Below are positions 12,986 through 47,523 of a stretch of 54,026 nucleotides of DNA, one piece after another (the stretch's first letter is position 1; every line of letters starts with the position of its first letter). Under the pieces are notes generated by a model. It saw only the letters and a program-made list of their open reading frames with translations. It ran no database searches and was not told the origin of the DNA. Made by a program: the position numbers and the translations under genes. Source of the DNA: Acanthaster planci. Its lineage: Eukaryota. The stretch is from assembly GCF_001949145.1 (NCBI RefSeq), contig NW_019091480.1, positions 1,151,235 to 1,205,260 on the forward strand. The letters run 5' to 3'.

Positions 12986-13117
12986 ATGGGCATTTTTAGC
13001 GACTGTCAGATAGCCTTGGACCTTGATGCAACCCAAGTCCCCTTCAAAAAGAAACAACTGCTCAGGCAACAGGTGACCAGCAATGGAGGAGTCATCTCCT
13101 ATATACTCACCAAGAAG
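12986..13117 (+). CDS. PARP4: PARP4/vPARP exon 1 (first coding exon, BRCT N-terminal half). Translation: MGIFSDCQIALDLDATQVPFKKKQLLRQQVTSNGGVISYILTKK.
   Basis: The ATG sits in a good Kozak context (caggggATGg). The peptide aligns to the human PARP4 N-terminus MVMGIFANC...QQQKKKLQTDIKENGGKFSF. The donor is aag|gtaagt, phase 0. The ORF-track ORF 12977.. begins at an upstream in-frame TTG. Confidence 0.85.
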
Positions 13118-13978
13118 GTAAGTCAGGATGCCAGGATGCTGAATGCACAAATTTTCTTCCCCCAAAACTACAAGTGCATCTACATTGTATTATTGAAGCC
13201 TTGTTCGGTAGTTCTGGTTGCAACTTGAAAAAAAATGGTAACCACTTCCAAGCTGCAGGTTGTAACTGCAACCACTGTAGGACAATAGATGTGCATGCTA
13301 TTGAATGCTGAAGTCATTTATCTCAAAGTACACAATTGTTTGCAAAAGGCATTAGTGTGAGAACCAGTGCTGGACCAACACATCATGTACTCAATTTGTT
13401 TGCTCTTCATGTCCTAGTTCAAATGGGGTCATCACATTTCAGTTCTGTATACTACCAGCAACAGCAAACGGATTTCAACTTCTGTTTACAACGCGGCAGG
13501 GGCATGTTTTCATGATTAGTAACCAGAAAGTCATTTTTGACTACCAAAAATAACCTAGAACAGGTTGAAAGAGGTCCACAAGAAAGGCAGTACTTGCCAG
13601 ACGCAGTCATGTCATCCTAGAGATACAATGTACATATACTGGGAGGAAAACCCCAGAGGAATATTCTGGGTAAAACCAACGGAATCAGGTAGGGACTGAG
13701 AACCCCAATTCACATGTGGACCAGGCCAAGATTCAAACCCGGACCACAGAGGCGGAAGGCGAGGAAAGAACCACTTCACTAACCTGACTCCCCGCCCACC
13801 TGAGTTCCCATTTGGGTTGAACAATGACGTCAGACAGGCATAACCAAATTTGCAAAAACACCCAACAAATTAAATGACCAAAGCGAAAACACATTTCTGG
13901 CTGCTGTCACAACTTTTGTGAATGTTTAAATCAAGCTCATTTTTGGAAAAAAATAATTTGCTGGTGATTTCTTCTCAG

Positions 13979-14177
13979 ACCTCCTACCTTGTCGCCAGCA
14001 ATGGGCCAAAGACGGCTGACTCCTACAAGGGACGCACGGCCAAGAAGCAAGGGGTGCCAATCATCAGCATGGGCTTCATTGAAAGGTGCCTAGAGGAAGG
14101 AAGGCTGGTAGACCACGAGGACTTCTTGCTGGTGGGCAAGACCAGCAGCATGCAGTTCAGCTCCGGCAAAATCATAG
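13979..14177 (+). CDS. PARP4: PARP4 exon 2 (BRCT C-terminal half). Translation: TSYLVASNGPKTADSYKGRTAKKQGVPIISMGFIERCLEEGRLVDHEDFLLVGKTSSMQFSSGKII(G).
   Basis: The acceptor is cttctcag at 13971-13978. The peptide is in frame with ORF 13922..14185 and carries a BRCT-like GxxxISxxFIxxC motif. The donor is atag|gtacat, ending in phase 1. Confidence 0.8.
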
Positions 14178-14654
14178 GTACATGAAAGTTGTGTTTGAAG
14201 GCTGCGGGCGCAGGATTTTTCAACATGTCATCACTGATATTACAAATGACCGTACCTCAGACTTATTCAGAATGGAGAGCTGAACTTTAATCATCACATA
14301 CCAGTTTCTCGTTTTGCCCTTAACGAGTATGCATGTGAGGATCCATGCGCAAGTCCATACATGCGGTAGTTCTGAGATAAAACTGTTGCATAGTTTGCAT
14401 AGTTGACATGGTTGACATAAGGCATGCGTGAGCATCCATCCTACTTGTTGTTACGCACACTACATGCAAACTACACATGATCAAACAGCAGTACGCAAAC
14501 CTTTTCCTTGGTCCTCAAATCTGAATGGCAATTGAACATTTCTGACTCTGAGGTATGGTATAACGAATTTGACTTTTATCTTGAAGGGGGGTGGTCAATT
14601 TTAGCTCCCCTTGGTATCTGTGAGAGTCAGGTTTGTTTTCTTGATTGTCAACAG

Positions 14655-14721
14655 CTGCAAAAACCCAACAGGAGCCCAAGAAGAAGGCCAAGGTGTTGTC
14701 TTTCAACATTAATAAAATCAA
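14655..14721 (+). CDS. PARP4: PARP4 exon 3 (small Lys-rich linker). Translation: (A)AKTQQEPKKKAKVLSFNINKI.
   Basis: The acceptor is tgtcaacag and the donor is caa|gtgagt. Its length of 67 nt (1 mod 3) is needed to join exon 2 (phase 1 out) to exon 4 (phase 2 in). Homology is weak, so the call rests mainly on phase consistency. Confidence 0.45.
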
Positions 14722-15135
14722 GTGAGTGTATTTTCTTCTTTCATCTTTTCTTCGTTTCTGCTACTGGTGCTTTTTCCCCGTCCTTCCAATCAAATGTCAA
14801 GTCAATCAGCAAGATTAAAGTCTGATTTCAAATCTTTAGTTTCTGCAGAAATGTTCAACTTGCGGTTGAGCCAAAGGCGGCTGATTTAGAAACCACTGGC
14901 TTATTGTTTGATTTCATTTCATGGTGTTCCCTTTTTTTCTCTTTTTTTTTATGAATTGCAATCATAGGGTAAATGCTTCAAGAGAGTTATTGAACTATGC
15001 CTCTTTATTTTGTGGAGGAAAAGATAAAAAATTACAGTTTGCTCAAGTATAATTTTGCATTCCTGAAAAGTCCGAATAATATTTCACAATTGTTTTTTTG
15101 TGGTCAGCATAAATTTCTTTTCTACATGTACTCAG

Positions 15136-15214
15136 GGTCTGGCCGTGGGGAAGTGTTGACACACCTGCTTATCCTGAGGACAAGTATGAGATTGCGAAGA
15201 GTGTTCTTCTGCAG
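15136..15214 (+). CDS. PARP4: PARP4 exon 4. Translation: (K)VWPWGSVDTPAYPEDKYEIAKSVLLQ.
   Basis: The acceptor is tgtactcag and the donor is cag|gtacct. PEDKYEIAKSVL matches human PQDFEVAKYNTL. Confidence 0.7.
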
Positions 15215-16192: not shown

Positions 16193-16354
16193 AAGAGAGA
16201 CACCAGGAGTAAAGATAGACTCTTCTATCACCTGGAGTTACACGTGGTTCCTGATGATGTCTTCAACTTGTCTAGGAACACCAAGGACAGTGGGCCAGCG
16301 TGTGATCACCCGTTCAGGGTTTTCACTCATCGCGGTGTACTCGATCACTTGATG
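16193..16354 (+). CDS. PARP4: PARP4 exon 5. Translation: KRDTRSKDRLFYHLELHVVPDDVFNLSRNTKDSGPACDHPFRVFTHRGVLDHLM.
   Basis: The acceptor is ctttgcag and the donor is atg|gtacga, phase 0 to phase 0. The peptide aligns to human VVVELQCSRDSRDCPFLISSHFLLDDGM. Confidence 0.75.
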
Positions 16355-17522: not shown

Positions 17523-17678
17523 GACGAAGACTCTGGCGCCAGAGAGGTCCGCTACTGCAACTCCAGTGAGGAAGCTCTAGAGACGTACAGCTTCCTGTAT
17601 CACCAGCAACAGCAGCATGGCATGAGCAGAGGCAAGAAGGCAGCCTCGCGCTGGATCGGCTCCCCTAAATATAGACAG
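17523..17678 (+). CDS. PARP4: PARP4 exon 6. Translation: DEDSGAREVRYCNSSEEALETYSFLYHQQQQHGMSRGKKAASRWIGSPKYRQ.
   Basis: The acceptor is ttattccacag and the donor is cag|gtacaa. SEEALETYSFLYHQQQQHG matches human SEDASEYFENYIEELKKQG. Confidence 0.75.
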
Positions 17679-18883: not shown

Positions 18884-19021
18884 ACTCAGCTGAGCATCGG
18901 GGAGGAAGAGGATGAGATGAGTCTAGAGGTGGCCTCCCTGGTGGCCAGTCTGTGGAAGGAGACGCTGGGAGAACTGGAAGACATCCTGGCTGTGGACATC
19001 AAGACCCTCACCTCCGAGAAG
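18884..19021 (+). CDS. PARP4: PARP4 exon 7. Translation: TQLSIGEEEDEMSLEVASLVASLWKETLGELEDILAVDIKTLTSEK.
   Basis: The acceptor is ctttcttccag and the donor is aag|gtacac. EVASLVASLWKETLGELEDIL matches human EVSDLVEMIWAEALGHLEHML. Confidence 0.8.
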
Positions 19022-19140: not shown

Positions 19141-19332
19141 GTGTCCAAGGCAGAGAGCATCCTCCTCCAAATCAGGAAAGCTCTGGATGGGGGAGGTGAC
19201 GATACTGATAAGTTTGAGGCGAGCATTGAGACCCTGAGCCAGGAGTTCTACAGCCAAATACCCCACAAGAGCGAGCACAAGAAAGACATCAAGACAAAGA
19301 GTGTGATCGCCAAGAAGCAGGATTTGTGCCAG
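19141..19332 (+). CDS. PARP4: PARP4 exon 8. Translation: VSKAESILLQIRKALDGGGDDTDKFEASIETLSQEFYSQIPHKSEHKKDIKTKSVIAKKQDLCQ.
   Basis: The acceptor is catcaacag and the donor is cag|gtactg. There is strong similarity to human VSKAEGILLLVKAALKNGETAEQLQKMMTEFYRLIPHKG...LLAKKADLCQ. Confidence 0.88.
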
Positions 19333-19814: not shown

Positions 19815-19972
19815 CTTATCAAAGACGTAGTCAGCGTGAGCGAGACAACTAACTGGTCGCAGCGGAGCAGTGTAGAGTCCAAGTACAGAGCCCTACGCTG
19901 TCACATCAGCTGCTTACCCGACAACCATCCCCACTACTACGATGTCAAGAACTTCATTATCTCTACACAAGG
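19815..19972 (+). CDS. PARP4: PARP4 exon 9. Translation: LIKDVVSVSETTNWSQRSSVESKYRALRCHISCLPDNHPHYYDVKNFIISTQ(G).
   Basis: The acceptor is cattggtcag and the donor is gg|gtatga, ending in phase 2. KYRALRCHI matches human AKYRALRCKI. Confidence 0.85.
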
Positions 19973-20710: not shown

Positions 20711-20848
20711 GAAGAAGCTAGCTGAAATCCTGCGCGTCTTTGCTGTGACGCGCCCTTTAGAGTTAACTAGCTTTGATGCCAAGCTGCACAACAGTCGTCT
20801 GCTGTTCCATGCATCCCGGCCAGCTAACTTTGTGGGCATCCTTTCAAG
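20711..20848 (+). CDS. PARP4: PARP4 exon 10 (start of the PARP catalytic domain). Translation: (G)KKLAEILRVFAVTRPLELTSFDAKLHNSRLLFHASRPANFVGILS(R).
   Basis: The acceptor is ctttgaag and the donor is caag|gtcggt, phase 2 in and phase 2 out. The NAD-fold His motif LLFHASRxxNxxGIL matches PARP LLHGSxxxNxxGIL. Confidence 0.85.
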
Positions 20849-21460: not shown

Positions 21461-21559
21461 AGGCCTTATCCTGCCCAAGGTGGTGGTGGATGACTTTGGC
21501 GGGGAGAGGACGGATGCTGGCATGCTGGGCAGTGGAATCTACTTCGCTGACAACTTCAG
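21461..21559 (+). CDS. PARP4: PARP4 exon 11 (PARP catalytic domain). Translation: (R)GLILPKVVVDDFGGERTDAGMLGSGIYFADNF(S).
   Basis: The acceptor is gccaacag and the donor is cag|gtattt. The GSGIYFAD motif carries the catalytic Tyr. The peptide matches human GLLLPKVVEDRGVQRTDVGNLGSGIYFSD. Confidence 0.9.
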
Positions 21560-22289: not shown

Positions 22290-22473
22290 CACCAGCGCCA
22301 AGTACTCCCACATCAGCCACACTCGAGGCACCCGCCTGATGACAATCAACCAGGTGGCCCTCGGGATATGTTATGAGACAACCAGCTACCATAAGGACTT
22401 CACCGAACCCCCGGATGGCTTCCATAGCGTCCACGGGGTCAGGAATGATGGCTCCAATCGTTCCGATTTCAAG
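22290..22473 (+). CDS. PARP4: PARP4 exon 12 (PARP catalytic domain). Translation: (S)TSAKYSHISHTRGTRLMTINQVALGICYETTSYHKDFTEPPDGFHSVHGVRNDGSNRSDFK.
   Basis: The acceptor is caaccacag and the donor is aag|gtgact. The peptide matches human TSIKYSHPGETDGTRLLLICDVALGKCMDL...PPGYDSVHGVS...TDFE. Confidence 0.9.
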
Positions 22474-23177: not shown

Positions 23178-23364
23178 GATGACGAATATGCAGTTTACAG
23201 CACTGAGCAGCAGCGTCTGCGCTATGTGGTTGAGTTTACTCTGCCCGGTGACAAACCCAAGCTGACCACTGGTCAAGCTCTCGCTGGCGAGGCTAATGTT
23301 TGCAGCGAAGAAGACAGCGATGGTCAAGCCAGCGATACGGAGGGGGACAAGTCGAGCGCCATCG
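23178..23364 (+). CDS. PARP4: PARP4 exon 13 (end of the catalytic domain, with the catalytic Glu in DDEY). Translation: DDEYAVYSTEQQRLRYVVEFTLPGDKPKLTTGQALAGEANVCSEEDSDGQASDTEGDKSSAI(G).
   Basis: The acceptor is atcctgcag, phase 0. DDEYAVYSTEQ matches human DDEFVVYKTNQ. The donor is atcg|gtaagc, ending in phase 1. A longer version starting near 23099 is out of phase with exon 12. Confidence 0.8.
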
Positions 23365-24493: not shown

Positions 24494-24624
24494 ACCTGAG
24501 TGACGTACAGAGCATCGAGGATCCTCTCAATAAAGTCCAGCCTGGACTCCTCTCCAGCAGTGACCAGCCCATTCCGCTCAAGGCTGTGCATGCGAGAGCC
24601 AAGCTACTGGACTTGGCAGCTCAG
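24494..24624 (+). CDS. PARP4: PARP4 exon 14. Translation: (D)LSDVQSIEDPLNKVQPGLLSSSDQPIPLKAVHARAKLLDLAAQ.
   Basis: The acceptor is ctcaattcag and the donor is cag|gtgagc, phase 1 in and phase 0 out. PLKAVHARAKLLDLAAQ matches human PLEDVHIKGRIIDTVAQ. Confidence 0.8.
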
Positions 24625-25417: not shown

Positions 25418-25636
25418 GTTGTCGTACTTCAAGTGTACGCAAATGACAGCGATTTTCCCATAGAAGCCAAGTACGTCTTCCCGCTGGATGAGCAGGCGGC
25501 AGTTTGCGGCTTTGAGGCCTTCATCAATGACAAGCACATTGTGGGTGAAGTGAAGGAGAAGGAGACTGCCCACAAGGAGTACAAGGAAGCCATCAGCAAG
25601 GGGCATGGCGCCTACCTCATGGATGAAGAAAAGCCA
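25418..25636 (+). CDS. PARP4: PARP4 exon 15 (VIT domain). Translation: VVVLQVYANDSDFPIEAKYVFPLDEQAAVCGFEAFINDKHIVGEVKEKETAHKEYKEAISKGHGAYLMDEEKP.
   Basis: The acceptor is aacccccag and the donor is cca|gtaagc. The peptide is near-identical in pattern to human VIVFQTYTNKSHVPIEAKYIFPLDDKAAVCGFEAFINGKHIVGEIKEKEEAQQEYLEAVTQGHGAYLM. Confidence 0.93.
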
Positions 25637-26241: not shown

Positions 26242-26444
26242 GATGTGTTCACTGTGAGTGTGGGCAACCTCCCTCCCAAGACCACCGTAGTGATCAAGAT
26301 CACCTACGTAGCTGAGCTGGCCGTGGATGGGGACAAGATCCTCTTTGGCCTGCCGGGGAGCGTGGCGCCGTGGAGGAAGGACGAGGCCCTGGCCCAGGAG
26401 ACGCAGGCCGACGTCACCACGGTCAAAGTCAAAGACACCGACAG
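26242..26444 (+). CDS. PARP4: PARP4 exon 16 (VIT domain). Translation: DVFTVSVGNLPPKTTVVIKITYVAELAVDGDKILFGLPGSVAPWRKDEALAQETQADVTTVKVKDTD(R).
   Basis: The acceptor is ccctccctcag and the donor is acag|gtcagg, ending in phase 2. DVFTVSVGNLPPK..IKITY..VAPW matches human exactly in those motifs. Confidence 0.93.
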
Positions 26445-27207: not shown

Positions 27208-27289
27208 GTCCTTATCTGTGCATGTTGCCATAGAGATGCCTTATGAAATCCGAAGTCTGGAATCTCCTACACACCCAATCAAACGCAAG
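27208..27289 (+). CDS. PARP4: PARP4 exon 17. Translation: (R)SLSVHVAIEMPYEIRSLESPTHPIKRK.
   Basis: The acceptor is ccaatctag and the donor is aag|gtaatc. SIEMPY matches human SLTMSIEMPYVIEF. Confidence 0.85.
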
Positions 27290-28030: not shown

Positions 28031-28361
28031 CAAACTGCCAGCAAAGCAACTGTCTGCCTTGCAGATGACTGCCTGGGACTGGACGACGGCTTCCAGCTCC
28101 TGATTGGCCTGGCAGAGATCCACGTGCCCCGCATGTGGGTGGAGAGACACCCCGAGGACAGTGACAGCCAGGCCTGCATGCTGACCTTCTACCCGGAGTT
28201 TGAGGCCGAGCAGACCGACCAGTCGGAGGTGGTGCTCCTGCTGGACTTATCCAACTCAATGCGGGGAGGGAGCAGCCTGCAAGAAGCCAAGAAGGTTGCC
28301 CTCCTCGCCCTGCATCATCTGCCCAAGGACTGGCGGTTCAATGTCGTTGTTTTTGGAACAG
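28031..28361 (+). CDS. PARP4: PARP4 exon 18 (start of the vWA domain). Translation: QTASKATVCLADDCLGLDDGFQLLIGLAEIHVPRMWVERHPEDSDSQACMLTFYPEFEAEQTDQSEVVLLLDLSNSMRGGSSLQEAKKVALLALHHLPKDWRFNVVVFGT(G).
   Basis: The acceptor is tttcttacag and the donor is acag|gtatac, ending in phase 1. The peptide carries the vWA DxSxS-type motif (LLDLSNSM). It matches human HIGLSAAYLPRMWVEKHPEKESEACMLVFQPD...SEVIICLDCSSSMEG...IIQFGTG. Confidence 0.93.
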
Positions 28362-28677: not shown

Positions 28678-28936
28678 ATTTTGAGGAGCTGTTCCCACAG
28701 AGCCAAGCCAAGACACCAGACACTGTGAAGTCGGCTACCAACTTTCTGCAGGGCTTATCTGCTGCCATGGGCAACACCGACGTCTGGCACCCCCTGCGGA
28801 CCTACTTCATGCTGAAGTCAGGCCAGCTGTGCAACATCTTTATCATCTCGGACGGCCACGTCAGTAACGAGGACGCAACCTTGGAGGCTGTCCGCCGGAA
28901 TTGCCGCCATACCAGGGTGTTCACCCTCGGTGTTAG
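28678..28936 (+). CDS. PARP4: PARP4 exon 19 (vWA domain). Translation: (D)FEELFPQSQAKTPDTVKSATNFLQGLSAAMGNTDVWHPLRTYFMLKSGQLCNIFIISDGHVSNEDATLEAVRRNCRHTRVFTLGV(S).
   Basis: The acceptor is gttttccag and the donor is ttag|gtttgt, ending in phase 2. MGNTDVWHPLR...ISDGH...RHTRVF matches human MGNTDFWKTLR...VSDGH...PHTRLF. Confidence 0.9.
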
Positions 28937-31543: not shown

Positions 31544-31726
31544 ATATTGCATCAGCTGACGGCCCGGAACATCATCCGTGACTGGGAGGAGGGCGCCCTC
31601 GCAGCTGACCGCACCCGGCACGAAGCTCGTAAGGCCGAGCAAAAAAGCTACATCATCGAGCTGAGCAAGAAGTACTCCATCGTCACCCAGTTCACCAGCT
31701 TCGTCGCCGTGGAAGTCCGAGACAAG
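31544..31726 (+). CDS. PARP4: PARP4 exon 23. Translation: ILHQLTARNIIRDWEEGALAADRTRHEARKAEQKSYIIELSKKYSIVTQFTSFVAVEVRDK.
   Basis: The acceptor is ccccattcaag and the donor is aag|gtcggg. ITQFTSFVAVE is identical to human. The peptide matches human MIHKLAARALIRDYEDG. Confidence 0.92.
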
Positions 31727-32513: not shown

Positions 32514-32636
32514 TCAGAAGAAGGCAAGGTCAAAACCGGGGTGGACGTGAATGACCTGTTGAAGAAAGAAGAGGTGGACTCGTTGCCTTACTTAGGCTGG
32601 CAGCAGGACAAGGCCCAAGATGCAGCAGTACCAACG
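32514..32636 (+). CDS. PARP4: PARP4 exon 24. Translation: SEEGKVKTGVDVNDLLKKEEVDSLPYLGWQQDKAQDAAVPT.
   Basis: The acceptor is tttttttttgtag and the donor is acg|gtcagt. VDSLPYLGWQ matches human VDFLPYMSWQ. Confidence 0.8.
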
Positions 32637-32968: not shown

Positions 32969-33124
32969 ACCTTGGAGGAGCAAGCAGGGATAGCTGAGTT
33001 GCTGGACCAAGCAGAAAGAGAAGTTTCTTTTTCTGTCCTGAGAACTGAGAGATTATACCAGCAAATCCTAAAGAAACTGAATGACTCCCGTGACAAATAT
33101 AAAAAAGATCCCGTGCTTCAGAGG
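32969..33124 (+). CDS. PARP4: PARP4 exon 25 (variable linker region). Translation: TLEEQAGIAELLDQAEREVSFSVLRTERLYQQILKKLNDSRDKYKKDPVLQR.
   Basis: The acceptor is cctttttgtctag and the donor is agg|gtatat, phase 0 in and out. Similarity to the basic human stretch LRLSKRKHRKIPFSKRK is weak, so the call rests mainly on ORF, splice sites and phase. Confidence 0.5.
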
Positions 33125-34150: not shown

Positions 34151-34205
34151 GTGGTTCGGCAAATGCAGGATTTTTGTGTCAACGTGAAGCACGAGGACTT
34201 CTCCG
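34151..34205 (+). CDS. PARP4: PARP4 exon 26 (candidate micro-exon). Translation: VVRQMQDFCVNVKHEDFS(D).
   Basis: The acceptor is tctccaacag and the donor is ccg|gtattt, phase 0 in and phase 1 out. The phase-1 exit is needed to bridge exon 25 to the well-supported exon at 34685. Confidence 0.35.
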
Positions 34206-36238: not shown

Positions 36239-36271
36239 GTGATGCATTTTATAGCTCCCCGGAAGAGGAAG
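36239..36271 (+). CDS. PARP4: PARP4 exon 28 (candidate micro-exon). Translation: (G)DAFYSSPEEE(G).
   Basis: The acceptor is ctcttgcag and the donor is gaag|gtaagt, phase 1 in and out. It is a phase-neutral cassette, so it could equally be an alternative exon. Confidence 0.3.
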
Positions 36272-38641
36272 GTAAGTCTTAATTGATTTCAGTTTTCTGA
36301 GCAGTAGATGCAACTTGTATATTCATTGATGCTTTTACATTTACTTCGGTTTCAGTGTTTCAGATTTTGAAATGGGGTGTCAAATTACTTGTGGTGGCAA
36401 ATCCATTCTTAGATGTCTTTATTCCACTGAACTGTCACTGTAATCATCACGTTTTCTGTGTGTCCTGTTGACATGAAGCAGGTTGAACTTGTTGACTACT
36501 GCACTTGATTTCGTAGGGTGTTTCTATAGTATGCATACAGGTACTCTTCAGGTTTCTATTGGAGCACAATTGTTTTACAGATGTACACCCTTCACACTGC
36601 CAGCAGCGTATTTGTTGTGTTTTTTGGTGATGCCGGTGTATTCAATTTAATAATAACAATAATTTTTTATAAAGTGCGCTCCATAAAAATTATCTCAGAG
36701 CGCTATACAATATACACTACAAACTATAACACCCGATAGGCCCTAATTAAAAATCATTACATATTACAAACTACAGGGATCAATTAAATAAAACAATGAT
36801 TATTTAAAAATCAACATAAAACTTAATTCACTAATTTACATTACAATAACCTTTTATTTTCCTTAAGTATACTCATAGTGGCAAAATCCATACACCTGTT
36901 ACCACTAGTATACTTGTAGTCGGCAGTCAGCATGTTAATAACAACTATCTACTTCTTTGTTACAGACTGGATAAATATGACATTGGAATGTGTTGCACCA
37001 GAGATACCTGAAAGCCGTGAGTCAATGGCCCATTGTTTTTTCGTCACAGATCCTGCTCCGGATCATGGGATCTATATCTGTGCAAAAACAGGCAGACCCG
37101 TTCACAAGCACATCAGATGACATTGATGACTGAATATATATTATCGTACGGCATTTATTTCACATTTTGGAGACAGAATGTCTGTGGTACTGTGTACATG
37201 TTCCAGGAACATCAGATCAGATGTAATGTTCCGTAATTGCAAAGTGCATTCTAAAAGAATTCTGAAGACATGCGGTAAGAGAAGTTCATTGAATGCTTTA
37301 AATCTACAAAAGAAACTTCTTGTTTCTCTCCGTCCATGGCACACGCTGCCAGCTTTAATCTTTCCCAGCCCATCTTGCAAGTTGGGCCCCTTAAAATGTA
37401 ATCCGCAGCAACTATTGCTGCGTCGGATCAGCAATCATCAATCAGGATTGCAGCAAGACAAACCAGACCATTGATTTTGAATGCCGGTTAGATTCTCACA
37501 CAGTGGCCCAGCCAGCGCCCTTTCCGTGGACTGATGAAGATGACAGTGGCTCATGCATGGCGTGGGTTGTGATGCCATTTTGTTTCCAAAATGGTTTTCC
37601 CTTTATTTATTAATTGTAAACTGTGCTCACCCATTAAGTTTGTAAAGCCAGTGCAGCTTTTTGTGGGCAATGTTACTAGGGCGCTGGGGCTGAATTCAAA
37701 TTGGGAGATCAGCTTTGGGCTGGGCACTGCACCCTGTTGCTTCTGAACAGAGTTGATCTTTAATCAACTCCGTCAGTTCTGAGTTGGTGAAGGGTGTCTC
37801 CCCTATTTCACATTAAATTTCTGATAGCCCGGGCAAAACGTGATGGACCTGTGGACTAAACGCACAGTAGTGCTCCATCCATCCCCAAGACAAGTTGAAA
37901 TTACAAATCTTGTTGCTTTCTTCTTTTTCTTTCATATTGAACACAGTGATGGGTAGCCATATTAGTCAGATATCAACAATGAAAATATATGCAGCACTTT
38001 GATGACCAACTAAGGTCCATTTTTGCATGAGCTTTCATAGCAATAGATACTTCATTAGATGCAATGACATAATCATCACCTGTTGTCTAGACCATCATAC
38101 AGGGCCTGTATTATACCTTGCCTAATGATGTTTACTGCGTTGCATCTGATGAAGTAGTTGTGCTATGAAAGCTTATGTAGAATTTTACCTTTGCTAGTCA
38201 TTAAAGTGATAAATACATGTATCATTTTTCCATTCATTTTCAAATGCAAGCCTTTTTTTAACAGGTCATTCCTGCAGGATTTTGAGAATTGTCATGTCAG
38301 TGTGAAGCAATTTTCATAATTAATAATATTTTTATACTGACCATCTTCTTTTTTGGGGGGGGGCGTGTGAAACATGTCTGCATGGGTTGGTGGTAGTCAC
38401 AGGACACACTCTGTTGCATGTGTGTTACCAGGGTAGGGGGAGGGGAAGAGGACTTTTTTTTTAAATACCAGGGAATGAACCCCTTCCACCATTAATGGTT
38501 CATCAGTTTGCTCTCATTAGGACAAAAGTCCTGCCCCCTAGAACATGTCCTAGCAACGCCCATGGTCTATTTGCCGTCGCGCGTGTTGAACTTTGAGTGT
38601 ATTCATTCATTATTCACCCTATCTCTTTTTTGCCTCAACAG

Positions 38642-38785
38642 CGAGCTATGTACCCACTTCACCGTCTTTTATGGGTGCGTCAGATCCTTTTGCTCGAATT
38701 GGGTACATGAGTGATGATGATGAGGAGTATTTGGAGCCAAGCGCTGAGGAAAGTTACGATTTGGATGAGGATAAGTATGAGAATG
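38642..38785 (+). CDS. PARP4: PARP4 exon 29 (candidate acidic exon). Translation: (A)SYVPTSPSFMGASDPFARIGYMSDDDEEYLEPSAEESYDLDEDKYEN(D).
   Basis: The acceptor is tgcctcaacag and the donor is aatg|gtgagc, phase 1 in and out. The peptide is in frame with ORF 38593..38871. Confidence 0.45.
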
Positions 38786-39339: not shown

Positions 39340-39411
39340 ATGAATCAGAGAGCTCTGAAGAGGAAATGGAGCGGGATCTTTTCCTCTTGGAGGAGGAAAA
39401 ACAAGCACTCC
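39340..39411 (+). CDS. PARP4: PARP4 exon 30 (candidate acidic exon). Translation: (D)ESESSEEEMERDLFLLEEEKQAL(L).
   Basis: The acceptor is ttctttcaag and the donor is ctcc|gtaagg, phase 1 in and out. It joins in frame to the large exon at 42537. Confidence 0.4.
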
Positions 39412-42231
39412 GTAAGGGTTTGTTTTTGAGTACCTAGGCTTTATACATGAAACCGGGGAGCCCGAAACCGGTACAAAGAGTTGGACCTTGTAACAAAAGA
39501 CCATGCTCAGCCCAAAAGACTGAGCTGCTGGGCATTACCGACATTTTTTCACTCTCAATAGTGGAGATAATCCAGCCTTGTTTTGTAACAGTATACCACG
39601 GTGTGGGGCATTTAGATTGAGCGGATTACCACCGGGGACTAAAGCGCTCCACCACCGCAGCGATGAGCCACACAGCACCGCTGCATGCTAATCTGGCCCC
39701 TATTGAAAAGAGGTCAGCAGCGCACTGTTCCAGGTTCGGGGCCAAAAGAATCTTACATAACACCGCACAATCTGGGCTATTTTTACAAGGCTGCAGGCCT
39801 GGCTGAAATACTCAGGCATCAATGAAGGCTACCTGTCACCTTAGAGTAGAGCCCAAAGAGCCCTTCATGTGTGTTTAAATGTCCGTTAAATAAAATGATG
39901 AATTTTTGAAAAATTTTGAAAACTGAAAATCTTGAAAATTGCCCTGTATGTGTGCGCTGCATTTTTATTAGCACCCGGCAGCAAGTGGTTATTACCGAGT
40001 AATGAAATTTTTCAATTAACACTGGCTATATTTTCTGAGCAGTGGGCAAATAGAAGTTGTATCTAGTGCTGTAAGCAGCAAGAATTTCCAAATGGGTGAA
40101 TTAAGCCAAAATTTTGATTATGTTTTCGAATTAGCTGGGTGAGAACCTGTGCACCTTCAATCTTACATAACCTTTCATTTGTCTGATCCTTTCCACATAA
40201 AATAGCTTTTCCTTCGAGCTGCAGGAAAAATATTGGAGGGGGCGGGGAGCTGTTTCGAAAAAAAGAGTCCAAACATGCAAGTGTCGCAGGAGAAGATAAA
40301 CCTGTAAGTCAGCCATGGAGATAACTTTACTATTTTCGTAATGCCAGTCATTATAACCATGAACTGGCTTCAAATTTGGCCAAGAGCTAGGCATGTTGTT
40401 TCCAAAGCCCTTAAAGTAATGGCAACTCGCTGGTTATGTTAGTACCTTGTACACATGGCACATGCAGTATGTTCAATCTTTATATACCCAGTACAACACC
40501 ACTACACCGACCAGCACAGTACCGAACAGCTGGGTTCACCAAACATCCCTTTTGATTCCCAAATTGTCAGTGTACCTTTGCTGAACATTGAAAAGTTACA
40601 TGAACATTAATTAAAAAGCAGTTTAATTAGGACCGATTATAATATCCAGAAAGGTGAGGAAACTCGTAGCTCAAGAAATCATACAAAGAGCAACAGCCAA
40701 CACTGCATGCAGTCTGTGTCACATGTGGCCCATGCTCTACACAATGAATCTTTGAGTGTGCACAGGTGGCTGTGTTAATCAGCCTCCAAGTAATGCACAG
40801 TATGCATGTGACATGAGCAGCTCTGACGCAGAAAATCGTTTTGGTGTTATTACTCCGAAGGCAAGAATTTTGCCTTGCTTAAAAAATCAAAATAGAAAAT
40901 ACGGAGAGAGACTGATTTAGCTGTGTGACAGAAATCTTCATCTAGTTGCTGCTTTGTTTTAGTTTTAACAGCTTTTGCCTAACATTTCTTATGTTGCTAG
41001 GATCAGACATTTATAATTGAATGTGAAACAGTGAGCGTCAAGGCCCAATTTTCAGTGTTGATGTTTATGTGTAAGTCAGAAATGTCGGTTCAAAATTCTC
41101 ACGCAGATACATTTGGTAGGCAAACCATCCCACGTTGGACTGGGCAGGATTCAGGAGAGGGTGCATTAGTGACTGATTATCGCTGTACAGGATGACAGCT
41201 ACATGCATGCTGAACATTTTATGTGGATCCCGTTGTAGTAGTGGTGTACTGTGTTGGTCACTTGTCGACAGCGATCATTTCTCTCAAACCCCCCCCCCTT
41301 GTGTATACTATGCAGAAACACCCTAAAGAGGGTATTACTGGAAATGTTGCTGACTGGAATGTTTGGATCAAATGATACCAAGATTGTCAACAGATTTGGA
41401 AAAGAGTTAACTCTAGCCGCTGTACGATTCCCCCAGCCAAACTAATTCATGTTTTGCACACTGCTGTCAAACTTCGAGTCTACACATGGGTCATCGATGG
41501 TCAGTCAATAAACGTTCAGCCTTAGCACTTGGAATCAATCTCCACTCTTCAAGCCTTGAGCTATTGAGATTGAGTGCATGGATTATTTTACGACACATCA
41601 GTTACTGGCTAGTGTACCATCATGAATACATGTATTCCCTCATTTGGAACACCATGGCCTCTGAAAGCACAGGAAGGATGTCTGCGACAGTCTGAATTTC
41701 TACCTTGTTTTCTCAAAAGGTATTGTAAGGAAATGGAGTTGAACTTTCATTTATCTCTCTTTTCTGTAGATGCTGAAAAAGAAACCAGACAAAGAAGAAC
41801 AAAAGTTAGAAAGCGACAGAAGTAAGTAAAAAGTTTCTTTTTAAATCTGCTTCCAGAATGCAAAAATCAGAATCACTTTATGCCAACCATCCTTTATGCC
41901 TGTTGTATATTTGCTGTTGAGCTGTAAAATCTAATACAGGAAAGTTTATTACCAAGTAGGGTTTTTTCGAGCATAACCTTTTTAAGGATGCATGAACAAT
42001 TGTTCGTGAGTGAATCACACATCAGCCACAAATGAATGCTATCATTGACTAAAATCCCCAAACCAAGCAGGGGGTACCCAGCAAGCAGTACTGAAAAAGC
42101 CTTCGTCTTGTATCAAGTGTTAAGCTGGGGCAAGTCTTGTGACAGACAAGATGGTCTTCTGCTGTTATACCCTGCAGAGCTCCAACCGAGACCAGCACAA
42201 AGTCCCAACTCACACCCACAATCAAACTTGG

Positions 42232-42243: not shown

Positions 42244-42536
42244 AAGCACTCCTGTTTCACTTCTCTACTCCTTTGAATTCAGTGCCTGAGATCAGACTTG
42301 TAGCTCGATTGGGAATGCCTAGTGTCGCAGGCTTGTTTGCCTCCAAATGACAGATGAAAAGTGTTGGCCATAATCCCAAGCGCCTGATTAATCAAAGTTA
42401 CATGTATGTAGCCTTGTTTAAAAAAGCAAAGAGCTCAAGAGCTGAATTTGCTAAGGCTGGATTCCTGTGCACGCTCCTTTAATCTGGCAGAATCACTTGT
42501 GTAAACCTTCTCATTCTTGTCATACACAACTTACAG

Positions 42537-44234
42537 TGTCTATACGACCAAAAGAAGCAGCTCCCCCTGCACATGCTAAGGTCTTGGTGGAAGATGTGGT
42601 AAACACCGGTTTCTTCACCTCCACAGGACAGCAACAAACACAGCAACAAGAGCATGCAACGGTAAATTTGCTTCCGGGTCTGTCCTTTAAAGCAGTTGAG
42701 CATTCCCTGGAACCTGCAACCTATAGAAGGTTGTCCTCTCCACCCTCAAGCCGACGAGCAAAGGGAATATCAGAACAGGCTATAACGCCTTCTACTCCAG
42801 CCGCTGGATACTCCTCACTAGACTCAGCGTGGGGCGGGCAGCCCCGAGGCCTTCCCGGAATGATGGGAGAGTTCTTGGGAGACACTGAATCAGCTGATTA
42901 CCTGGTAAGATCACAAGTGGCAGGAGGGTTTTCATTTGGAGCAGCTGCCTCTGCTGCAGCAACCCCAAGTTTTGGAAGTGCTGGTCCCCAGGCAGTGGGT
43001 GATAAAGCCACATCTTCAGATGTTACACCAAGAGCAGAAGCCGCATCAGGGTTCTCATTTGGTGCAACAACCTCCACTACCTCATTTGGTGGTTTTGGAA
43101 GTGCCCAGCCTCCGTCACTGGCTGATGAGTCTTCATTTGCTGATTTCACACCAAGGGCAGTAGCAGCGGCAGGATTCTCATTTGAAGCATCAGCCCCCGC
43201 TGCACCTTCCATGACTTTCGGAAGTTTTCAGCCTCCACCCACGGCTGCCATACCCACAGCCACCTCTGCCCCAGCAAGACCTGGCTTTGCTGCCTCTGGT
43301 ATGTTTGGACAAGCAGCTCCGGTGGCAGCTAGCCTTCCTAGGCTCCCATTAGATACCGGCGTCATGATAGGAATTACTCCCCCCCTTCCAATTAATGCCC
43401 AGCAAGCTGTTCCACCCCCACTCCCATTAAGAAGGGCTGTCCCAGAGCTTCAGCTGGCAAGTGACAAGGTGTGCCCCAAAATACTCCCTCTACCCACACT
43501 TTCTGTGTCGGTCCTAGAGCCTGAAGCACAATTTGTTGCTTCATTTACATGTACGTCAACCCAACCATGTGAGATGAAGAGAGCGTCAAAGCGACGGGCT
43601 GGTAAGAAACCAGAGGCAAAAAAAGTCAGTCCACTCCATGGACGTAGAGCACAAGATTCCAAGGAATCACCTGAACCTGCTACTGGTTTAAAAGTGGCCC
43701 GGAGTACAATGGGCACAGTGAAATCTGCAGTGATTAGTGAGGAGGGCGTTGCTCTAGGAAAACGTCCGGGGCCCATTCAGCAGAGGAGAAGCCTACAGAA
43801 AGATACAGCCAGAGCCAAGATGGATGAGCCGTGTGAGAGAGAAGCCCCAGCAAAACTCTGGGCAACAAAGAAAAAGAAGAAAGGTTACATGTTACCGACC
43901 TACAGTATATCTCTGGAGTCAGGCAAAGCAGAAGATTACATTTCTGAGGAGGTTGGTCTTTCTTTTGAGGATGCTTCAGTCCTGACAGAAATGGCAGATG
44001 GCCAAGATGAGATGGAAACATCTGCTGCATTCGATTGGCAAATAGTCCAACGTCGAACTGAAAAAAAGAGAGGACGGGAAGCCAGCGCTGCTGTTGGCAA
44101 GGGCCGACCCTGTGATGATGAACTGCCCCCAGCAGTCCCTCCCAGTCAGATGGCCAGGGACCATGATGCAATGGATGACCAGATAAGCGAAGCCATTAGT
44201 GCGCCACTGGGCTTTGAAGCAAGGGAGTCATCAG
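42537..44234 (+). CDS. PARP4: PARP4 exon 31, a giant exon (about 1.7 kb, about 566 codons). It encodes a Ser/Ala/Pro/Thr-rich low-complexity region with three tandem repeats of about 40 aa carrying GFSFG(A)...SFG motifs, followed by a Lys/Arg-rich and acidic segment.
   Basis: This is the 622-aa ORF 42467..44335. The acceptor cttacag at 42535/6 gives a phase-1 entry (L)SIRPKEAAPP.... The donor tcag|gtaagt at 44234/5 gives a phase-1 exit that is exactly what the well-supported next exon (GFRK...) requires. Human PARP4 has an analogous low-complexity region (SLSFASYRQVASFGSAAPP...). Internal gtaag-like sites at about 42620 and about 42905 mean the true 5' boundary could differ. Confidence 0.65.
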
Positions 44235-44599
44235 GTAAGTTCACCTCCTCTGCCGAAGCCACCCTGACATCTGTCAGGATTTTAGTGGTTGTCCAGGAAG
44301 ATTTTTCATTGACTAAAATAAATAAAGCCAATTAGTTATCATAAAGAGAAATAAAGGAGTTTGTTTTGTTCAATATTGCTCAACTTCTGAAGCCACTTTG
44401 ATGTTTGTCATGGTCTGAATAGTTGACTTAAGAGAATAATGGGCTCCAGTTTGTTCACTCTTGCTTCTTGAAAGAATGGCCAACTTCACGTTTATTATGT
44501 ACTCTTAGAACAACTTCCATTTGTCAATTAATTATATATTTTTTGCCCTGCCCGACGTGTATTATCACACTGTGTACTCAGTGTTTGCCCCCAAACGCT

Positions 44600-44690: not shown

Positions 44691-45155
44691 GGTGTCGGCT
44701 GGCTGGTCAGATGTAGCAGCGGGTACCACAAACAACTATTTTCAAGAAAAAAAATCTAAAATTTATTGACATCACCCTGGTGCAAATCCATCCTTGGAAA
44801 TAACTTCCATTTGAGCGACAAAAAAAAAAGAAAACGGTTTATCCGAGAAAACTAAAGTTGATTTTGTTCTGCGTTGCTCTTGAGACTTAATTTGAATGAT
44901 GGGAAATATGAAGATTATAAAAGGTGCATGAGTCGTGCAGGTTCTGAACTGATGAAGATACACTTTGTAGCATTTGTATCACACTGTTGTGGAGGCGAGA
45001 GACTGCTTTCAGTGATATTTTTCGCTGTACAAATTTCCTGTTATTCAGTACACTAAATACGGAAACATTTCCTCTTGCTGTTTTCAACATTTGGAATCAT
45101 GATAAAGAACTTTGCAAAGTTGACTACCCTTAAAAGTTCTTGTTCTACATCCCAG

Positions 45156-45223
45156 GATTCAGAAAGCACCCTGGCACTTATCGTTTGGCAACCATCATGA
45201 GACTTTTGAAATCACAGAACGAG
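45156..45223 (+). CDS. PARP4: PARP4 exon 32 (C-terminal MVP-interaction region). Translation: (G)FRKHPGTYRLATIMRLLKSQNE.
   Basis: The acceptor is ctacatcccag and the donor is gag|gtgagt, phase 1 in and phase 0 out. GFRK matches human DGFWKLTPELGLIL...LKQKG. Confidence 0.7.
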
Positions 45224-45428
45224 GTGAGTGAGTTGTTTGCTTAAATCTCACTGCTTTGATTTCAGACCCGAATTACATAGGAAAATCTTTAAGCTGGTGA
45301 AAGACAAGACCTTATCTTCCAGGCAAATCAGATAGATAATTCTCCACATAAACATTGAAGCGTTGAGGATCCTGGGATGATTCCCCTGAAATTGGAGCCT
45401 CAGTCAACCTATGTCTTGTAACTTGCAG

Positions 45429-45528
45429 GATGGGTGTTGGGACCTGTTTGCGGGCATTCAGGTGTTCGTTGGGGTCCGACTGAAGCCAGTCAGGAACCTA
45501 CTGAAGGAAGCTGGATTGAACTCGCTAG
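45429..45528 (+). CDS. PARP4: PARP4 exon 33. Translation: DGCWDLFAGIQVFVGVRLKPVRNLLKEAGLNSL(G).
   Basis: The acceptor is aacttgcag and the donor is ctag|gtaagt. LLKEAGLNSLG matches human FLKQKGIQSLG. Confidence 0.8.
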
Positions 45529-47278
45529 GTAAGTGACAGGCCAAAAAAAAAATTAATAACCTTCGGACGTGCTGCATGTGCTGCTTAAGTTTTTTCCCTG
45601 CCATTTTGCACAGGGGTAAAAGTTAAGTAAGAAATAAGCCTGCTTTGGCCGAAGTTTAGCACCAAAAGAGCCAGGTTATTTTGGCCCATCTCATCCAGGG
45701 GGGGGAATGTACATTTTTGGCTGACCTGTCTCGAAAGAACAGTATATTTGACGTCAAAAATTTTGTGTCAAAATGATTGCAAAGAGTTACATGTACTCTA
45801 AAAACGTCTACAGGCTAGACCCTAAAAAATGCTCTGCCATGATATCAAGAAAAATGTCAAGGGGGTTGGATTCCCCTCCTCCCGGCTCTTTTAGGGTTAA
45901 TGCAGGGACATGTCTGTATAGTTCTGGATAATTTGTGGCGAGAGTTCCTGTCATTCAGCTCAGTATGCTGAAGAGGCAGCAAGAACTACCTACAGTCATA
46001 CCATCAAATAAATAATGGGTATCATTTTAGCCTGCTATATGTGTGCTCCTTTTAGTCTAATTTGGGAGTCAGTTCAACAGTACCCCACGATTGGGGGTGG
46101 GGGGGCAAATTTCACAGTTAGGCTCCGGTATTGTGAAACAGCTTTCATGCATTGGCTAGGCAAGGAATATTTTGACATTGACAAGCCCTGCCCCCTCCTT
46201 TCAGATGTTAGAGGTATGGACAGCTGGCAAAATCGGGATGGTAAATGGAACCAATGAAGATTTGGGACTGGTCATGAAAGGACAACTCACTGATTCAAAA
46301 TGCACTCCTTATGTCTCCAGAAAGATTGAGCTGAAAATAGATTGGCTTGTATAAATGCTTCAATGCATTTTAAGATTTTCCTGACAATTTCCGCCAATGT
46401 TAACTTTGACAGCAACATTCTTAAGTGGATATACCTCCCTCAGTTCTTAGACTGTCTGCATTTCGACATCTTGTTTGTCCTTAGCTGGGAACATCTGATA
46501 CCTTTTGTTGTACAAGCAAACTGTCCTGCTGAAGTCAAACGGTGGTGATGCCAATTTTCACAGTAATATTCCCTTGGGTAATGAAGAGTTTCTATCTGTG
46601 GAATCTATAGGAAAGTATAGAGACAATTTCTACAGCACATTAATGCTATTGAAGAAATTCTCCACATACCTTTTCTAAGATGGTTATTCATTATCAATCT
46701 GGTCGACAACAAGTCTATCACTGTCACTCACAAGTCTGTTTCACCTATAGGCCAATTACAAGTCAGGCAAGTCCTTGAACAAGCAGGTTAGGCACTTGTA
46801 AATTGCAGGTCAGCATCAAATCAAATCACAAGTCAGGTCATTAGTAAAGTTACAAAGGATCGTCTTTGTCATAGTTGATAACATGGCTTGTTGATGCTCT
46901 GAGCATCATACTGAAGAAGTAGTTGTCTGTGAAAGGCCCTAAGAAGCACCTTTTGTTTAGCCTTTTGTGGCAATCTGGTTACTTTTTTCTCAAACTGTTT
47001 GCCAGGCCAGGTACTGTTTTTTTTTTAATTTCCTGAGGAAGCAGTGAGAAGGTGTGTTACCTCAGGTTTCTTTCAGATTCCCAGAAAAAATCTCTCTTCA
47101 GATTTGCCCAACCGATACAAGTATGGGTCAACTTACTTTGAAACAACCTCCAGGGATTAATTTTGAAGTAACACTTTAATTAAAATCAAAGGGATAAAAT
47201 GTCCACAGTAGCAGACTACAAGCTTTGACCTGCACCAACATGATTATCTCTCCTCTTTCATCCATGGCTTGCAAATAG

Positions 47279-47523
47279 GGGAGGAGGTCGCTTTAAAAAT
47301 TGAGCGGCTAGTGGCCACCTACCTGGTCATCCTGTACCTGAATTGCTTCTTGGAGGGCCCGCGCACTCCCACCATCGGCCCCCAAGAGAGGGAGATGATT
47401 ACCCAGTCTGTCCTGAAGGCAGAGAGGTTTGTTAGCCAGGTGGAGAGCGAACACCCGTCCCTGGCTCGGCGCCTGGAGTTGGGGAGCAGCTGGGACGAGG
47501 TCTGCCGGGATATCTTCAAGTAG
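47279..47523 (+). CDS. PARP4: PARP4 exon 34 (last coding exon, including the TAG stop). Translation: (G)GEEVALKIERLVATYLVILYLNCFLEGPRTPTIGPQEREMITQSVLKAERFVSQVESEHPSLARRLELGSSWDEVCRDIFK*.
   Basis: The acceptor is gcaaatag, phase 1 in. The peptide is contiguous with human SLGVKGRECLLDLIATMLVLQFI...ICPRLELGNDWDSATKQLLG. The TAG stop is at 47521-47523 and AATAAA follows at 47550-47555. Confidence 0.85.

Follow-up and report, generated by a model that had tools for sequence, protein, structure and literature searches.

A PARP4 (vault PARP) ortholog with a long disordered linker in Acanthaster planci

Positions 12986 to 47523 on the + strand of the window, the 54,026-nt stretch of Acanthaster planci DNA analyzed here, very probably hold a complete PARP4 (vault PARP) coding region, which encodes about 2,090–2,140 aa and is built like human PARP4. 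The gene structure, domain content, orthology, and C-terminal domain fold were established in the present analysis. The locus is an ordinary PARP4 ortholog, a further member of an already known family, and stands out only in its linker, which is long and disordered and carries a small number of nucleoporin-like FG repeats. Judged from its sequence, this copy is apparently complete and functional.

Gene model and relationship to known PARP4 proteins

The gene model was built by splice-aware dynamic programming in which every intron had to be GT-AG, frames had to stay open, and phases had to agree; codon log-odds served for scoring, with small bonuses at five homology-supported intervals. The GT-AG dinucleotides at all junctions were a constraint built into the model and thus no independent test of it. 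The sole gene recovered lies on the + strand and runs from an ATG at 12986 to a stop at 47521–47523, with 33 coding exons, 2086 aa, and 0 internal stops. An earlier note had proposed a frame with consistent phases and no internal stop; our separate model, in which phases were enforced, was likewise open throughout and had the identical start and stop. An acceptor-like site lies 3 nt upstream of the ATG and points to a further 5′ exon that would be non-coding. Among the first 24 junctions, 16 had at most one of 10 orthologs gapped within 5 aa; the others mostly showed gaps of 1–3 residues relative to these orthologs, with an 11-column gap at junction 24/25.

The domain order was BRCT, WGR-like region, helical regulatory domain (HD), ART with the catalytic residues H-Y-E, VIT, vWA, disordered linker, and C-terminal MVP-binding domain, the same order as in human PARP4 (UniProt PARP4_HUMAN; PDB 9bw6, 9bw7, 11jf, 8sx1, and 9dfo), with a similar multi-exon structure. 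Pfam matches above the curated cut-offs were obtained for VIT (130 bits), PARP (103–112), VWA_3 (72), PARP_reg (37–39), and BRCT (28–29). With PDB 11jf_P (1724 aa) as the human reference, model residues 1–673 aligned with human 3–637 (E 1e-81), 675–1130 with 639–1096 (E 9e-136), 1135–1251 with 1102–1216 (E 3.5e-25), and the last 120 aa with 1575–1702 (E 1.5e-7). Each of these four conserved blocks, in order, had human PARP4 as its top PDB sequence match, and among solved structures every part of the model matched human PARP4 best or exclusively; overall identity to it was about 40%. The human-aligned stretches span 27 model exons, so the claim of at least 25 colinear exons stands.

The named top matches in two protein databases were almost all annotated as PARP4 or PARP4-like. 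A single BLASTP match covered model residues 1–1304 at 46–52% identity to annotated PARP4 of Branchiostoma, Lytechinus, Antedon, Nematostella, bivalves, and gastropods; annotated PARP4 or PARP4-like proteins among the closest known systems are Branchiostoma lanceolatum CAH1248284.1, Lytechinus pictus XP_054753684.1, Antedon mediterranea XP_071956345.1, Nematostella vectensis XP_048577466.1, and Potamilus streckersoni KAK3593675.1. A neighbor-joining tree, itself weak, placed the protein nearest those of echinoderms and amphioxus. Like the present protein, these relatives align in one block over the first 1,250–1,300 aa and have long, lineage-specific linkers. Because annotated invertebrate PARP4 proteins of 1730–2520 aa are common, the size found here is not unusual. 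The actin-like insert of the Nematostella X1 and Mytilus models is absent here.

Exons 1 to 25: from BRCT to vWA

All exons lie on the + strand, and a slash marks an exon boundary. Exon 1 (12986–13117, phase 0 to 0, donor AAG/gtaagt) encodes the N-terminal part of BRCT, and its MGIFSDCQ lines up with the initiator Met in many PARP4 orthologs. Exon 2 (13979–14177), with tblastn matches from more than 30 orthologs, completes this domain (Pfam BRCT, residues 2–82). The 67-nt exon 3 (14655–14721, phase 1 to 2), one of those that the earlier note had marked as doubtful, encodes NINKIKVW, which aligned with the ortholog motif IRVWKWG; its donor, CAA/gtgagt, is strong and restores the phase into exon 4. 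The WGR-like region begins in exon 4 (15136–15214), where YPEDKYEIAKSVLLQ matched FPQDFEVAKY of vertebrates and invertebrates and the acceptor is the only one within the open frame. It continues in exon 5 (16193–16354), whose FYHLELHV...FRVFTHRGVLDHLM aligned with FYQLELH...YRVFSHHGNVNELK and whose donor at 16354 was picked by homology, and in exon 6 (17523–17678), supported by a tblastn match to Lytechinus (E 1e-8) and an HMM match.

Both tblastn matches and the human alignment supported exons 7, 9, 10, 12, 14, 16, 17, and 19–22. The helical regulatory domain occupies exon 7 (18884–19021) and exon 8 (19141–19332; tblastn and Pfam PARP_reg) and ends in exon 9 (19815–19972), in which the ART begins. 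The catalytic His lies in LLFHAS of exon 10 (20711–20848), the catalytic Tyr in GSGIYFAD of exon 11 (21461–21559; 75–79% identity to orthologs, human alignment), and the catalytic Glu in DDEYAVY of exon 13 (23178–23364; human alignment). Exon 12 (22290–22473) also belongs to the ART, and exon 14 (24494–24624) links it to VIT. For the exon 13 acceptor, ctgcag/GATGAC, homology was preferred over a longer ab initio exon. The human counterparts of FHAS, GIYF, and DDEYAVY are LHGS, GIYF, and DDEFVVY.

VIT is encoded by exon 15 (25418–25636; 74–81% identity to orthologs and the Pfam match of 130 bits) and by exon 16 (26242–26444), which leads into an ITIH-like segment continued in exon 17 (27208–27289). 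Exon 17 has a weak tag acceptor, and because the alignment is gapped by 2 residues at junction 16/17, its boundary could be a few nt off. The N-terminal part of vWA, with the D-x-S-x-S MIDAS-like DLSNSM, lies in exon 18 (28031–28361; tblastn E 1e-38, Pfam VWA_3), and the rest in exon 19 (28678–28936; also Pfam) and exon 20 (29509–29608). The C-terminal part of the ITIH-like segment follows in exon 21 (30160–30330), and then come exon 22 (30698–30778) and exon 23 (31544–31726), with ILHQLTARNIIRDWE...QFTSFVAVE, which had tblastn matches and lies within the alignment to human 1102–1216. Exon 24 (32514–32636) encodes EEVDSLPYLGWQ, the counterpart of human EDVDFLPYMSWQ, and had more than 50 ortholog tblastn matches. 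Exon 25 (32969–33124, phase 0 to 0) encodes the helical segment LLDQAEREVSFSVLRTERLYQQ between clean splice sites (tctag/ACC ... AGG/gtatat). It matched a Lytechinus PARP4-like protein (tblastn E 0.002, phmmer E 4e-4), and the FSVL..E.Y helix is also found in Nematostella PARP4.

The locus could instead be a decaying, non-functional copy, or another VIT-vWA or PARP paralog (VWA5A, ITIH, or PARP1–3). In favor of this reading, Ala replaces Gly after the catalytic His, and no database protein exceeded about 52% identity. However, the frame is intact across approximately 2,090 codons in 33 exons, the catalytic and structural motifs are all kept, PARP1–3 scored at most 80 bits compared with 279 for PARP4, and ITIH chains scored at most 41 bits compared with 457. 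VWA5A and ITIH1–4 share the VIT and vWA block but lack the BRCT, WGR, HD, and ART modules, and the combination of BRCT, ART, VIT, vWA, and MINT in one chain is unique to PARP4. We therefore consider a pseudogene or paralog exceedingly improbable, and the preferred reading is the complete PARP4 ortholog described in the earlier note, with all defining domains in the right order and human PARP4 as the best structure match.

The linker and its exons

The linker is approximately 700 aa (about 714) and disordered; it contains acidic cassettes, three repeats that include FG, and stretches rich in Pro or in Lys, the Lys-rich ones NLS-like. The protein is about 360–420 aa longer than human PARP4, and the excess lies entirely in the linker (~714 compared with ~358 aa), and its cassettes, repeats, and Lys-rich stretches set it apart from the human one. 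Outside exon 25, the homolog search with the linker gave no match, and a word-index search with the C-terminal 828 aa returned nothing, so that the databases searched contain no close relative.

The four or five small linker exons between 34.1 and 39.5 kb are putative, their splicing being proposed from splice-site and codon scores alone. Hypothetical exon 26 (34151–34205, phase 0 to 1), an ab initio micro-exon, is required for the switch from phase 0 to 1, and its EDFSGDAFYSS weakly resembles fish DDFGLDVSFYS. Hypothetical exon 27 (36239–36271, phase 1 to 1), an acidic 33-nt micro-exon, was the top-scoring small linker exon and has strong splice sites (ttgcag/ and /gtaagt). Two hypothetical acidic cassettes follow, both phase 1 to 1: exon 28 (38642–38785), predicted ab initio and with no match in the homolog search, and exon 29 (39340–39417), the weakest, which has an aag acceptor and was lost from the model under stricter site penalties. 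The earlier note had called 33–42.5 kb the least certain part of the gene, and we agree, with four small exons there lacking homology support and an exon total that depends on the linker.

The giant exon 30 (42627–44234; 1608 nt, phase 1 to 1) lies inside a 626-codon open frame (42455–44332) and has a codon log-odds of +104, a strong acceptor (ccacag/), and a strong donor (CAG/gtaagt). Its acceptor could alternatively be 42537 (phase 1, +30 aa), and this choice together with one extra cassette brings the model near the 34 exons and 2140 aa proposed earlier. That structure is plausible but unverifiable from sequence alone; in our best-scoring models the exon total ranged from 23 to 42 with the linker, set by one parameter, the splice-site penalty. 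The repeat search found three tandem repeats of 123 nt (41 aa) at 42907–43275, diverged at 69–76% identity, each carrying the motifs GFSF(G/E) and (S/G/T)FGS. The earlier note correctly placed the extra length over human in this part of the protein but overstated its repetitive nature; only 3 × 123 nt of the 1.6-kb exon are repeated.

FG-motif clusters recur in the PARP4 linkers of several distant lineages; our literature search found no paper describing such recurrent clusters in PARP4 linkers. The repeat unit of the FG segment is peculiar to the present protein.

The C-terminal domain and predicted vault docking

The MVP-binding domain begins in exon 31 (45156–45223), where the junction-spanning RLLKSQNE/DGCW aligned with human ELLSLQTEDGFW. 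It continues in exon 32 (45429–45528), over both junctions of which the human alignment is unbroken, and ends in exon 33 (47279–47523) with RRLELGSSW and the stop codon TAG at 47521–47523; exon 33 had more than 20 ortholog tblastn matches. In phmmer searches, the domain matched 63 ortholog C-termini. An AlphaFold model of the C-terminal 136 aa, made from an 18-sequence alignment, had a pLDDT of 90.8. Its sole fold match was the MINT domain of human PARP4 from the vault-cage structure 9bw6_B (probability 1.00, TM 0.70), and the next structure had an E of 1.3. The predicted fold is thus the all-helical MVP-interaction (MINT) domain. The C-terminal helical domain of VWA5A is moderately similar (PMC10450202).

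These exons bear on a second alternative, in which a PARP4-like gene is shorter and stops at around 33 kb and the giant and C-terminal exons form a separate downstream gene or an optional 3′ extension. Some annotated orthologs do stop just past the LPY..W segment, before the linker (Branchiostoma, 1363 aa; Antedon, 1267 aa), and the 9.5 kb from 33.1 to 42.6 kb contain no homology-supported exon. Moreover, read-through of the giant-exon donor leads to a stop at 44333–44335 overlapped by two AATAAA signals, so alternative 3′ ends are possible in the locus. Nevertheless, the C-terminal domain is PARP4-specific, with the PARP4 MINT domain as its one match in the PDB by fold and by sequence; its exons are on the same strand, in ortholog order, and in compatible phases; molluscs, cnidarians, and vertebrates have full-length orthologs that combine a long linker with this domain; and no start codon context or N-terminal homology of its own was seen for a gene downstream. 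Two transcription units are therefore unlikely, and we favor a single gene.

The MVP–PARP4 interface residues have been named (PMC12280208), and the interface is kept in part. Equivalents of human S1614 and R1689, the latter highlighted as conserved (PMC10450202), are present, whereas K1618 is Glu here. Because of this change, and because the PARP4-binding residues of MVP are conserved in vertebrates only (PMC12280208), vault docking in this species is something we infer rather than take as given. By analogy with the family, enzyme activity and vault binding are predicted: most likely, the C-terminal domain would dock the enzyme on the inside of the cage that major vault protein builds, and the linker would allow the N-terminal NAD+-dependent ADP-ribosyltransferase to reach into the vault lumen. 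Downstream of the coding region, an AATAAA at 47550–47555 (+), 27 nt past the stop codon, is a candidate polyadenylation signal by consensus match alone.

Gene model of PARP4

The window is AT-rich eukaryotic DNA (36-50% GC) with short open reading frames (ORFs) and one exception, a 626-codon frame at 42455-44332. Scans of the whole window against Rfam, and for tRNAs and tandem repeats, gave no tRNA, no Rfam family and no RNA genes. The clearly coding ORF pieces were concatenated and used as the initial query against a protein database. The named matches were mostly annotated as PARP4, the best being that of the coral Desmophyllum with 51% identity. When the matched proteins were returned to the window by tblastn, they gave 18 colinear blocks on the plus strand between 12983 and 31726.

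A gene finder restricted to GT-AG introns, open frames and consistent phases was then run; exons were scored by codon log-odds, for which the tblastn blocks served as the training set, and by generic splice-site matrices. The ATG at 12986 and the stop at 47521-47523 were chosen already in the first run, so that an independent gene finder arrived at the same start and end that had been proposed from the sequence alone. The initial output missed exons 4, 5, and 25 and made exon 13 too long, and was amended by homology. This added exons at 15136-15214, 16193-16354 and 32969-33124 (exon 25) and shortened exon 13, which now starts at 23178. Exon 3 was set at 14655-14721, where a strong donor restores the phase. 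The final model has 33 coding exons and encodes 2086 amino acids with zero internal stops, in keeping with the uninterrupted frame claimed earlier.

A good acceptor-like site (gtgatatttgcag/GGG; window 12950-12985), with the acceptor at 12982, precedes the ATG by 3 nt and suggests that one or more non-coding 5' exons lie before it. Because of this site, the transcript probably has one exon more than the coding count.

Domain content and vault docking

Pfam matches to BRCT, PARP_reg, PARP, VIT, and VWA_3 all exceeded their curated cut-offs, and the BRCT, PARP, VIT and vWA architecture described in the earlier note was thereby recovered in full. The BRCT domain (residues 2-93) scored 27.6-29.1 bits with Pfam BRCT (cut-off 21.3) and 30.6-30.7 bits with BRCT_2 (cut-off 27.3), and the N-terminal BRCT matched the human PARP4 BRCT crystal chains 9dfo and 9dev. 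The WGR-like region encoded by exons 4-6 had no match of its own in a Pfam scan of the model; it aligned to human PARP4 130-230 inside one alignment, and also to invertebrate orthologs. The helical regulatory domain (HD) that precedes the catalytic domain (ART) scored 36.7-38.6 bits with PARP_reg (cut-off 26.8). The ART domain scored 103-112 bits with Pfam PARP and matched the human PARP4 catalytic chains 8sx1 and 8swy with E values of 1e-75 and 2e-53. The residues of the predicted NAD+ site of this ADP-ribosyltransferase domain are present: the His of 'FHAS', the Tyr of 'GIYF' and the Glu of 'DDEYAVY' align to the human His-Tyr-Glu residues. The ITIH-like block scored 130 bits with VIT and 72 bits with VWA_3.

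Human PARP4 (11jf_P, the full-length chain) was the best solved-structure match for each conserved block, and the blocks were in order. Model residues 1-673 matched human 3-637 (E 1e-81), 675-1130 matched 639-1096 (E 9e-136), 1135-1251 matched 1102-1216 (E 3.5e-25), and the last 120 amino acids matched 1575-1702 (E 1.5e-7). The colinearity with human PARP4 that had been asserted was thus confirmed over human 3-1216 and 1575-1702. PARP1-3 and ITIH chains scored far below PARP4. The first 1,250-1,300 residues of the model gave a single BLASTP match to orthologs, with 46-52% identity. At 16 of the first 24 exon junctions, gaps within five residues occurred in no more than one of 10 orthologs; the remaining junctions mostly had gaps of 1-3 residues, and junction 24/25 had an 11-column gap.

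An exhaustive HMMER search with the part downstream of the vWA domain found 316 relatives. Those that were looked up were almost all annotated as PARP4 or PARP4-like, as were the named top matches of both protein searches; the relatives looked up came from amphioxus, sea urchin, crinoid, Nematostella, bivalves, gastropods, leech, myriapods, scorpion, tunicate, sponge, vertebrates, and a dictyostelid. By sequence comparison the gene is assigned to PARP4 as an ortholog, rather than to PARP1-3, VWA5A or ITIH as a paralog. A pseudogene, or a different PARP or VIT-vWA paralog, was considered and rejected on account of the intact frame and the score gaps to other families. The gene is an added member of a well-known family with an ordinary architecture, and the earlier note described a real gene and interpreted it correctly. 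As gene annotation it is of little importance, since it conforms to a family whose annotated members already span Metazoa and reach further.

The sole PDB sequence match of the C-terminus was human PARP4 1575-1702 (E 1.5e-7), and the C-terminal domain matched 63 ortholog C-termini. Both junctions of the last three exons fall inside the gap-free alignment with human PARP4 ('RLLKSQNE/DGCW' and 'LNSLG/EEVA'). A single-sequence AlphaFold prediction of the C-terminus was unusable (pLDDT 47.8), and an AF2 model built with 17 ortholog C-termini was used instead (pLDDT 90.8). Its predicted fold matched the MVP-interaction (MINT) domain of vault-bound human PARP4 (9bw6_B) with a probability of 1.00 and a TM score of 0.70; no other solved structure fell below an E value of 1, the next match being at 1.3. 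The MVP-binding domain that completed the proposed architecture was therefore found by sequence, by ortholog C-termini and by predicted fold. These results also bear on whether the locus holds two genes, a short PARP4 followed by a downstream gene with the giant exon (exon 30, 42627-44234) and the MINT domain. That arrangement is disfavoured, since strand, order and phase compatibility fit a single gene and the MINT domain is PARP4-specific.

In human PARP4 the residues that contact MVP include S1614, K1618, and R1689, and K1618 forms a salt bridge with MVP D214 in the vault-PARP4 structure (PMC12280208); Arg1689 has also been singled out as a conserved surface residue (PMC10450202). In the window's protein the Ser and Arg equivalents of S1614 and R1689 are kept. 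The equivalent of K1618 is a Glu, encoded at the exon 32/33 junction (45429-45528 / 47279; protein 'NSLGEEVA'), which suggests that the MVP surface co-varies or else that docking is weaker.

Inside the vault, PARP4 is attached to MVP repeats 3-5 through its C-terminal helical domain, and long disordered regions allow the N-terminal enzyme to move in the vault lumen; the BRCT, WGR-like and HD modules, which are similar to their counterparts in PARP1, may be sensors of nucleic acid (PMC12280208, PMC10450202). Because all of the family's parts are present, the best inference for the window's PARP4 is that it would act in the same way, as a vault-anchored protein with a mobile N-terminal enzyme. 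Vault docking by analogy carries the caveat that MVP keeps its PARP4-binding residues in vertebrates only (PMC12280208) and that K1618 is not kept here. A well-conserved invertebrate MVP-binding domain with an Arg1689 equivalent bears on the suggestion that vault occupancy by PARP4 is perhaps a vertebrate innovation (PMC12280208), and a curated full-length invertebrate PARP4 is one modest point of value.

The disordered linker and its FG clusters

The linker that joins the ITIH-like block to the MVP-binding domain is about 714 amino acids long here, compared with about 358 in human PARP4. The earlier note had placed most of the excess in a giant repeat exon. The extra length does lie in the linker; the repetitive part of the giant exon, however, is confined to 42907-43275, where three 123-nt units with 69-76% identity encode 41-residue units with conserved GFSF(G/E) and (S/G/T)FGS motifs. 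The rest of the exon is of low complexity, with Pro-rich, Lys/Arg-rich and acidic sequence. Invertebrate PARP4 models of 1,730-2,520 amino acids are common, and the size found here is therefore unremarkable. What makes invertebrate PARP4 longer is its disordered linker, which evolves rapidly.

In the stretch from 33.1 to 42.6 kb, which separates exon 25 from the giant exon, exons were placed by ab initio scores only. The candidates, all on the plus strand, are 34151-34205, 36239-36271, 38642-38785, and 39340-39417. The last three are acidic and run from phase 1 to phase 1, and so fit the acidic cassettes that had been proposed for this region, at the level of ab initio scores. A phmmer search with 40-odd ortholog linkers against all ORF pieces from 32.7 to 47.3 kb found only exon 25 and left 33.1-42.6 kb unmatched, and a word-index search with the C-terminal 828 amino acids returned zero homologs. 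The protein of the giant ORF had no identical entry on look-up. The best models ranged from 23 to 42 exons as one parameter was varied. Two positions, 42627 and 42537, are good phase-1 acceptors for the giant exon, which itself begins and ends in phase 1, and 37432-37545 is an extra cassette candidate. Use of the 42537 acceptor plus one more cassette, such as 37432-37545, would plausibly bring the model near the 34 exons and ~2140 amino acids first reported.

The linkers of an annotated Nematostella PARP4 isoform X1 and of an annotated Mytilus model contain a segment resembling the actin N-terminus ('GFAGDDAP...VGRPRHQGVMVGMGQKD'), which could represent a conserved insertion or an annotation artefact common to both models. 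No actin-like exon was found in the window by tblastn or phmmer.

The linker contains seven FG dipeptides (two of them FSFG), concentrated in about 130 residues. This is an enrichment at p=0.0025 in composition-preserving shuffles, and 13 of 37 PARP4 linkers were FG-enriched at p<0.01 in the same kind of test, in which the counts are non-independent owing to tandem repeats. FG-nucleoporin domains are disordered, carry many FG, FxFG or GLFG motifs separated by short polar spacers, and are recognised by the Pfam Nucleoporin_FG models. No Pfam family, nucleoporin models included, matched the linker at E<=0.01. A nucleoporin-type FG domain in the giant exon was rejected, because the motifs are too few and the Pfam match is absent.

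Similar FG clusters (GFSFG, SFGS, LFGG and the like) are present in PARP4 of very distant species, after the ITIH-like block and before the MVP-binding domain. Besides the plus-strand cluster at 42907-43275, they occur in the linkers of the fish Gouania ('GFSFGSGEGFGS'), the frog Discoglossus, the caecilian Rhinatrema, the lungfish Protopterus, the snail Biomphalaria, the dictyostelid Synstelium, and the sea urchin Lytechinus ('SLFGG' repeats), although some of these gene models, such as that of Lytechinus, which is without a MINT domain, may be fusions. Each lineage has repeat units of its own, a pattern that points to repeated gain or retention. The recurrence of FG clusters in distant PARP4 linkers is apparently undescribed, and in the literature searched we found no paper connecting PARP4 with FG repeats.

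We consider it improbable, judging from these sequences, that the cluster is a maintained functional module of PARP4 and not incidental low complexity. If it were such a module, it could bind nuclear transport receptors or build a cohesive FG meshwork inside the vault. A link of vaults to nuclear pores and transport is an old, unresolved idea, on which an FG module would provide a molecular handle.

If the donor of the giant exon at 44234 is left unused, the frame stays open over a further 33 codons and ends in a TAG (44333-44335). AATAAA signals at 44317 and 44321 overlap this TAG, and a third lies at 44350. A truncated isoform that lacks the MVP-binding domain, formed through intronic polyadenylation in 44235-44355, is a speculative reading of this arrangement.

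Neighbouring features

Ten non-PARP4 ORFs from introns and flanks gave nothing credible with Pfam. The first coding exon of an ortholog of REV3L, the catalytic subunit of DNA polymerase zeta, lies on the minus strand at 210-348 ('MFSVRIVTVNHYLARP...VLRIFGATPA'), with its ATG at 348-346 and a donor (G/gtaagt) after 210. It scored 52 bits with Pfam REV3_N (cut-off 29.9) and had zero sequence matches in the PDB. REV3L leaves the window leftwards and is head-to-head with PARP4, 12.6 kb from the PARP4 ATG.

In the intergenic DNA between REV3L and PARP4 lies an element of roughly 1.6 kb (8612-10203), both ends of which are formed by arrays of a 16-17 nt tandem repeat in inverted orientation (CAACTCGGACCCA... 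/ ...TGGGTCCGAGTTG), with arms of up to 80 nt that are 83-93% complementary. This architecture is foldback-like, resembling that of foldback-type transposable elements. Dense (CATGTA)n / (GTACAT)n-like microsatellites and degenerate copies of them occupy 950-5300 and produce long spurious ORFs rich in Met, Tyr, Cys, Thr, and His on both strands. The Ala-rich ORFs at 50230-50670, for which Pfam found nothing, lie on both strands of a locally GC-rich patch (e.g., 'MASAVSAAPAIPSQASAAAAPAS...' on the minus strand), and a neighbouring gene could have its first exon in this patch.
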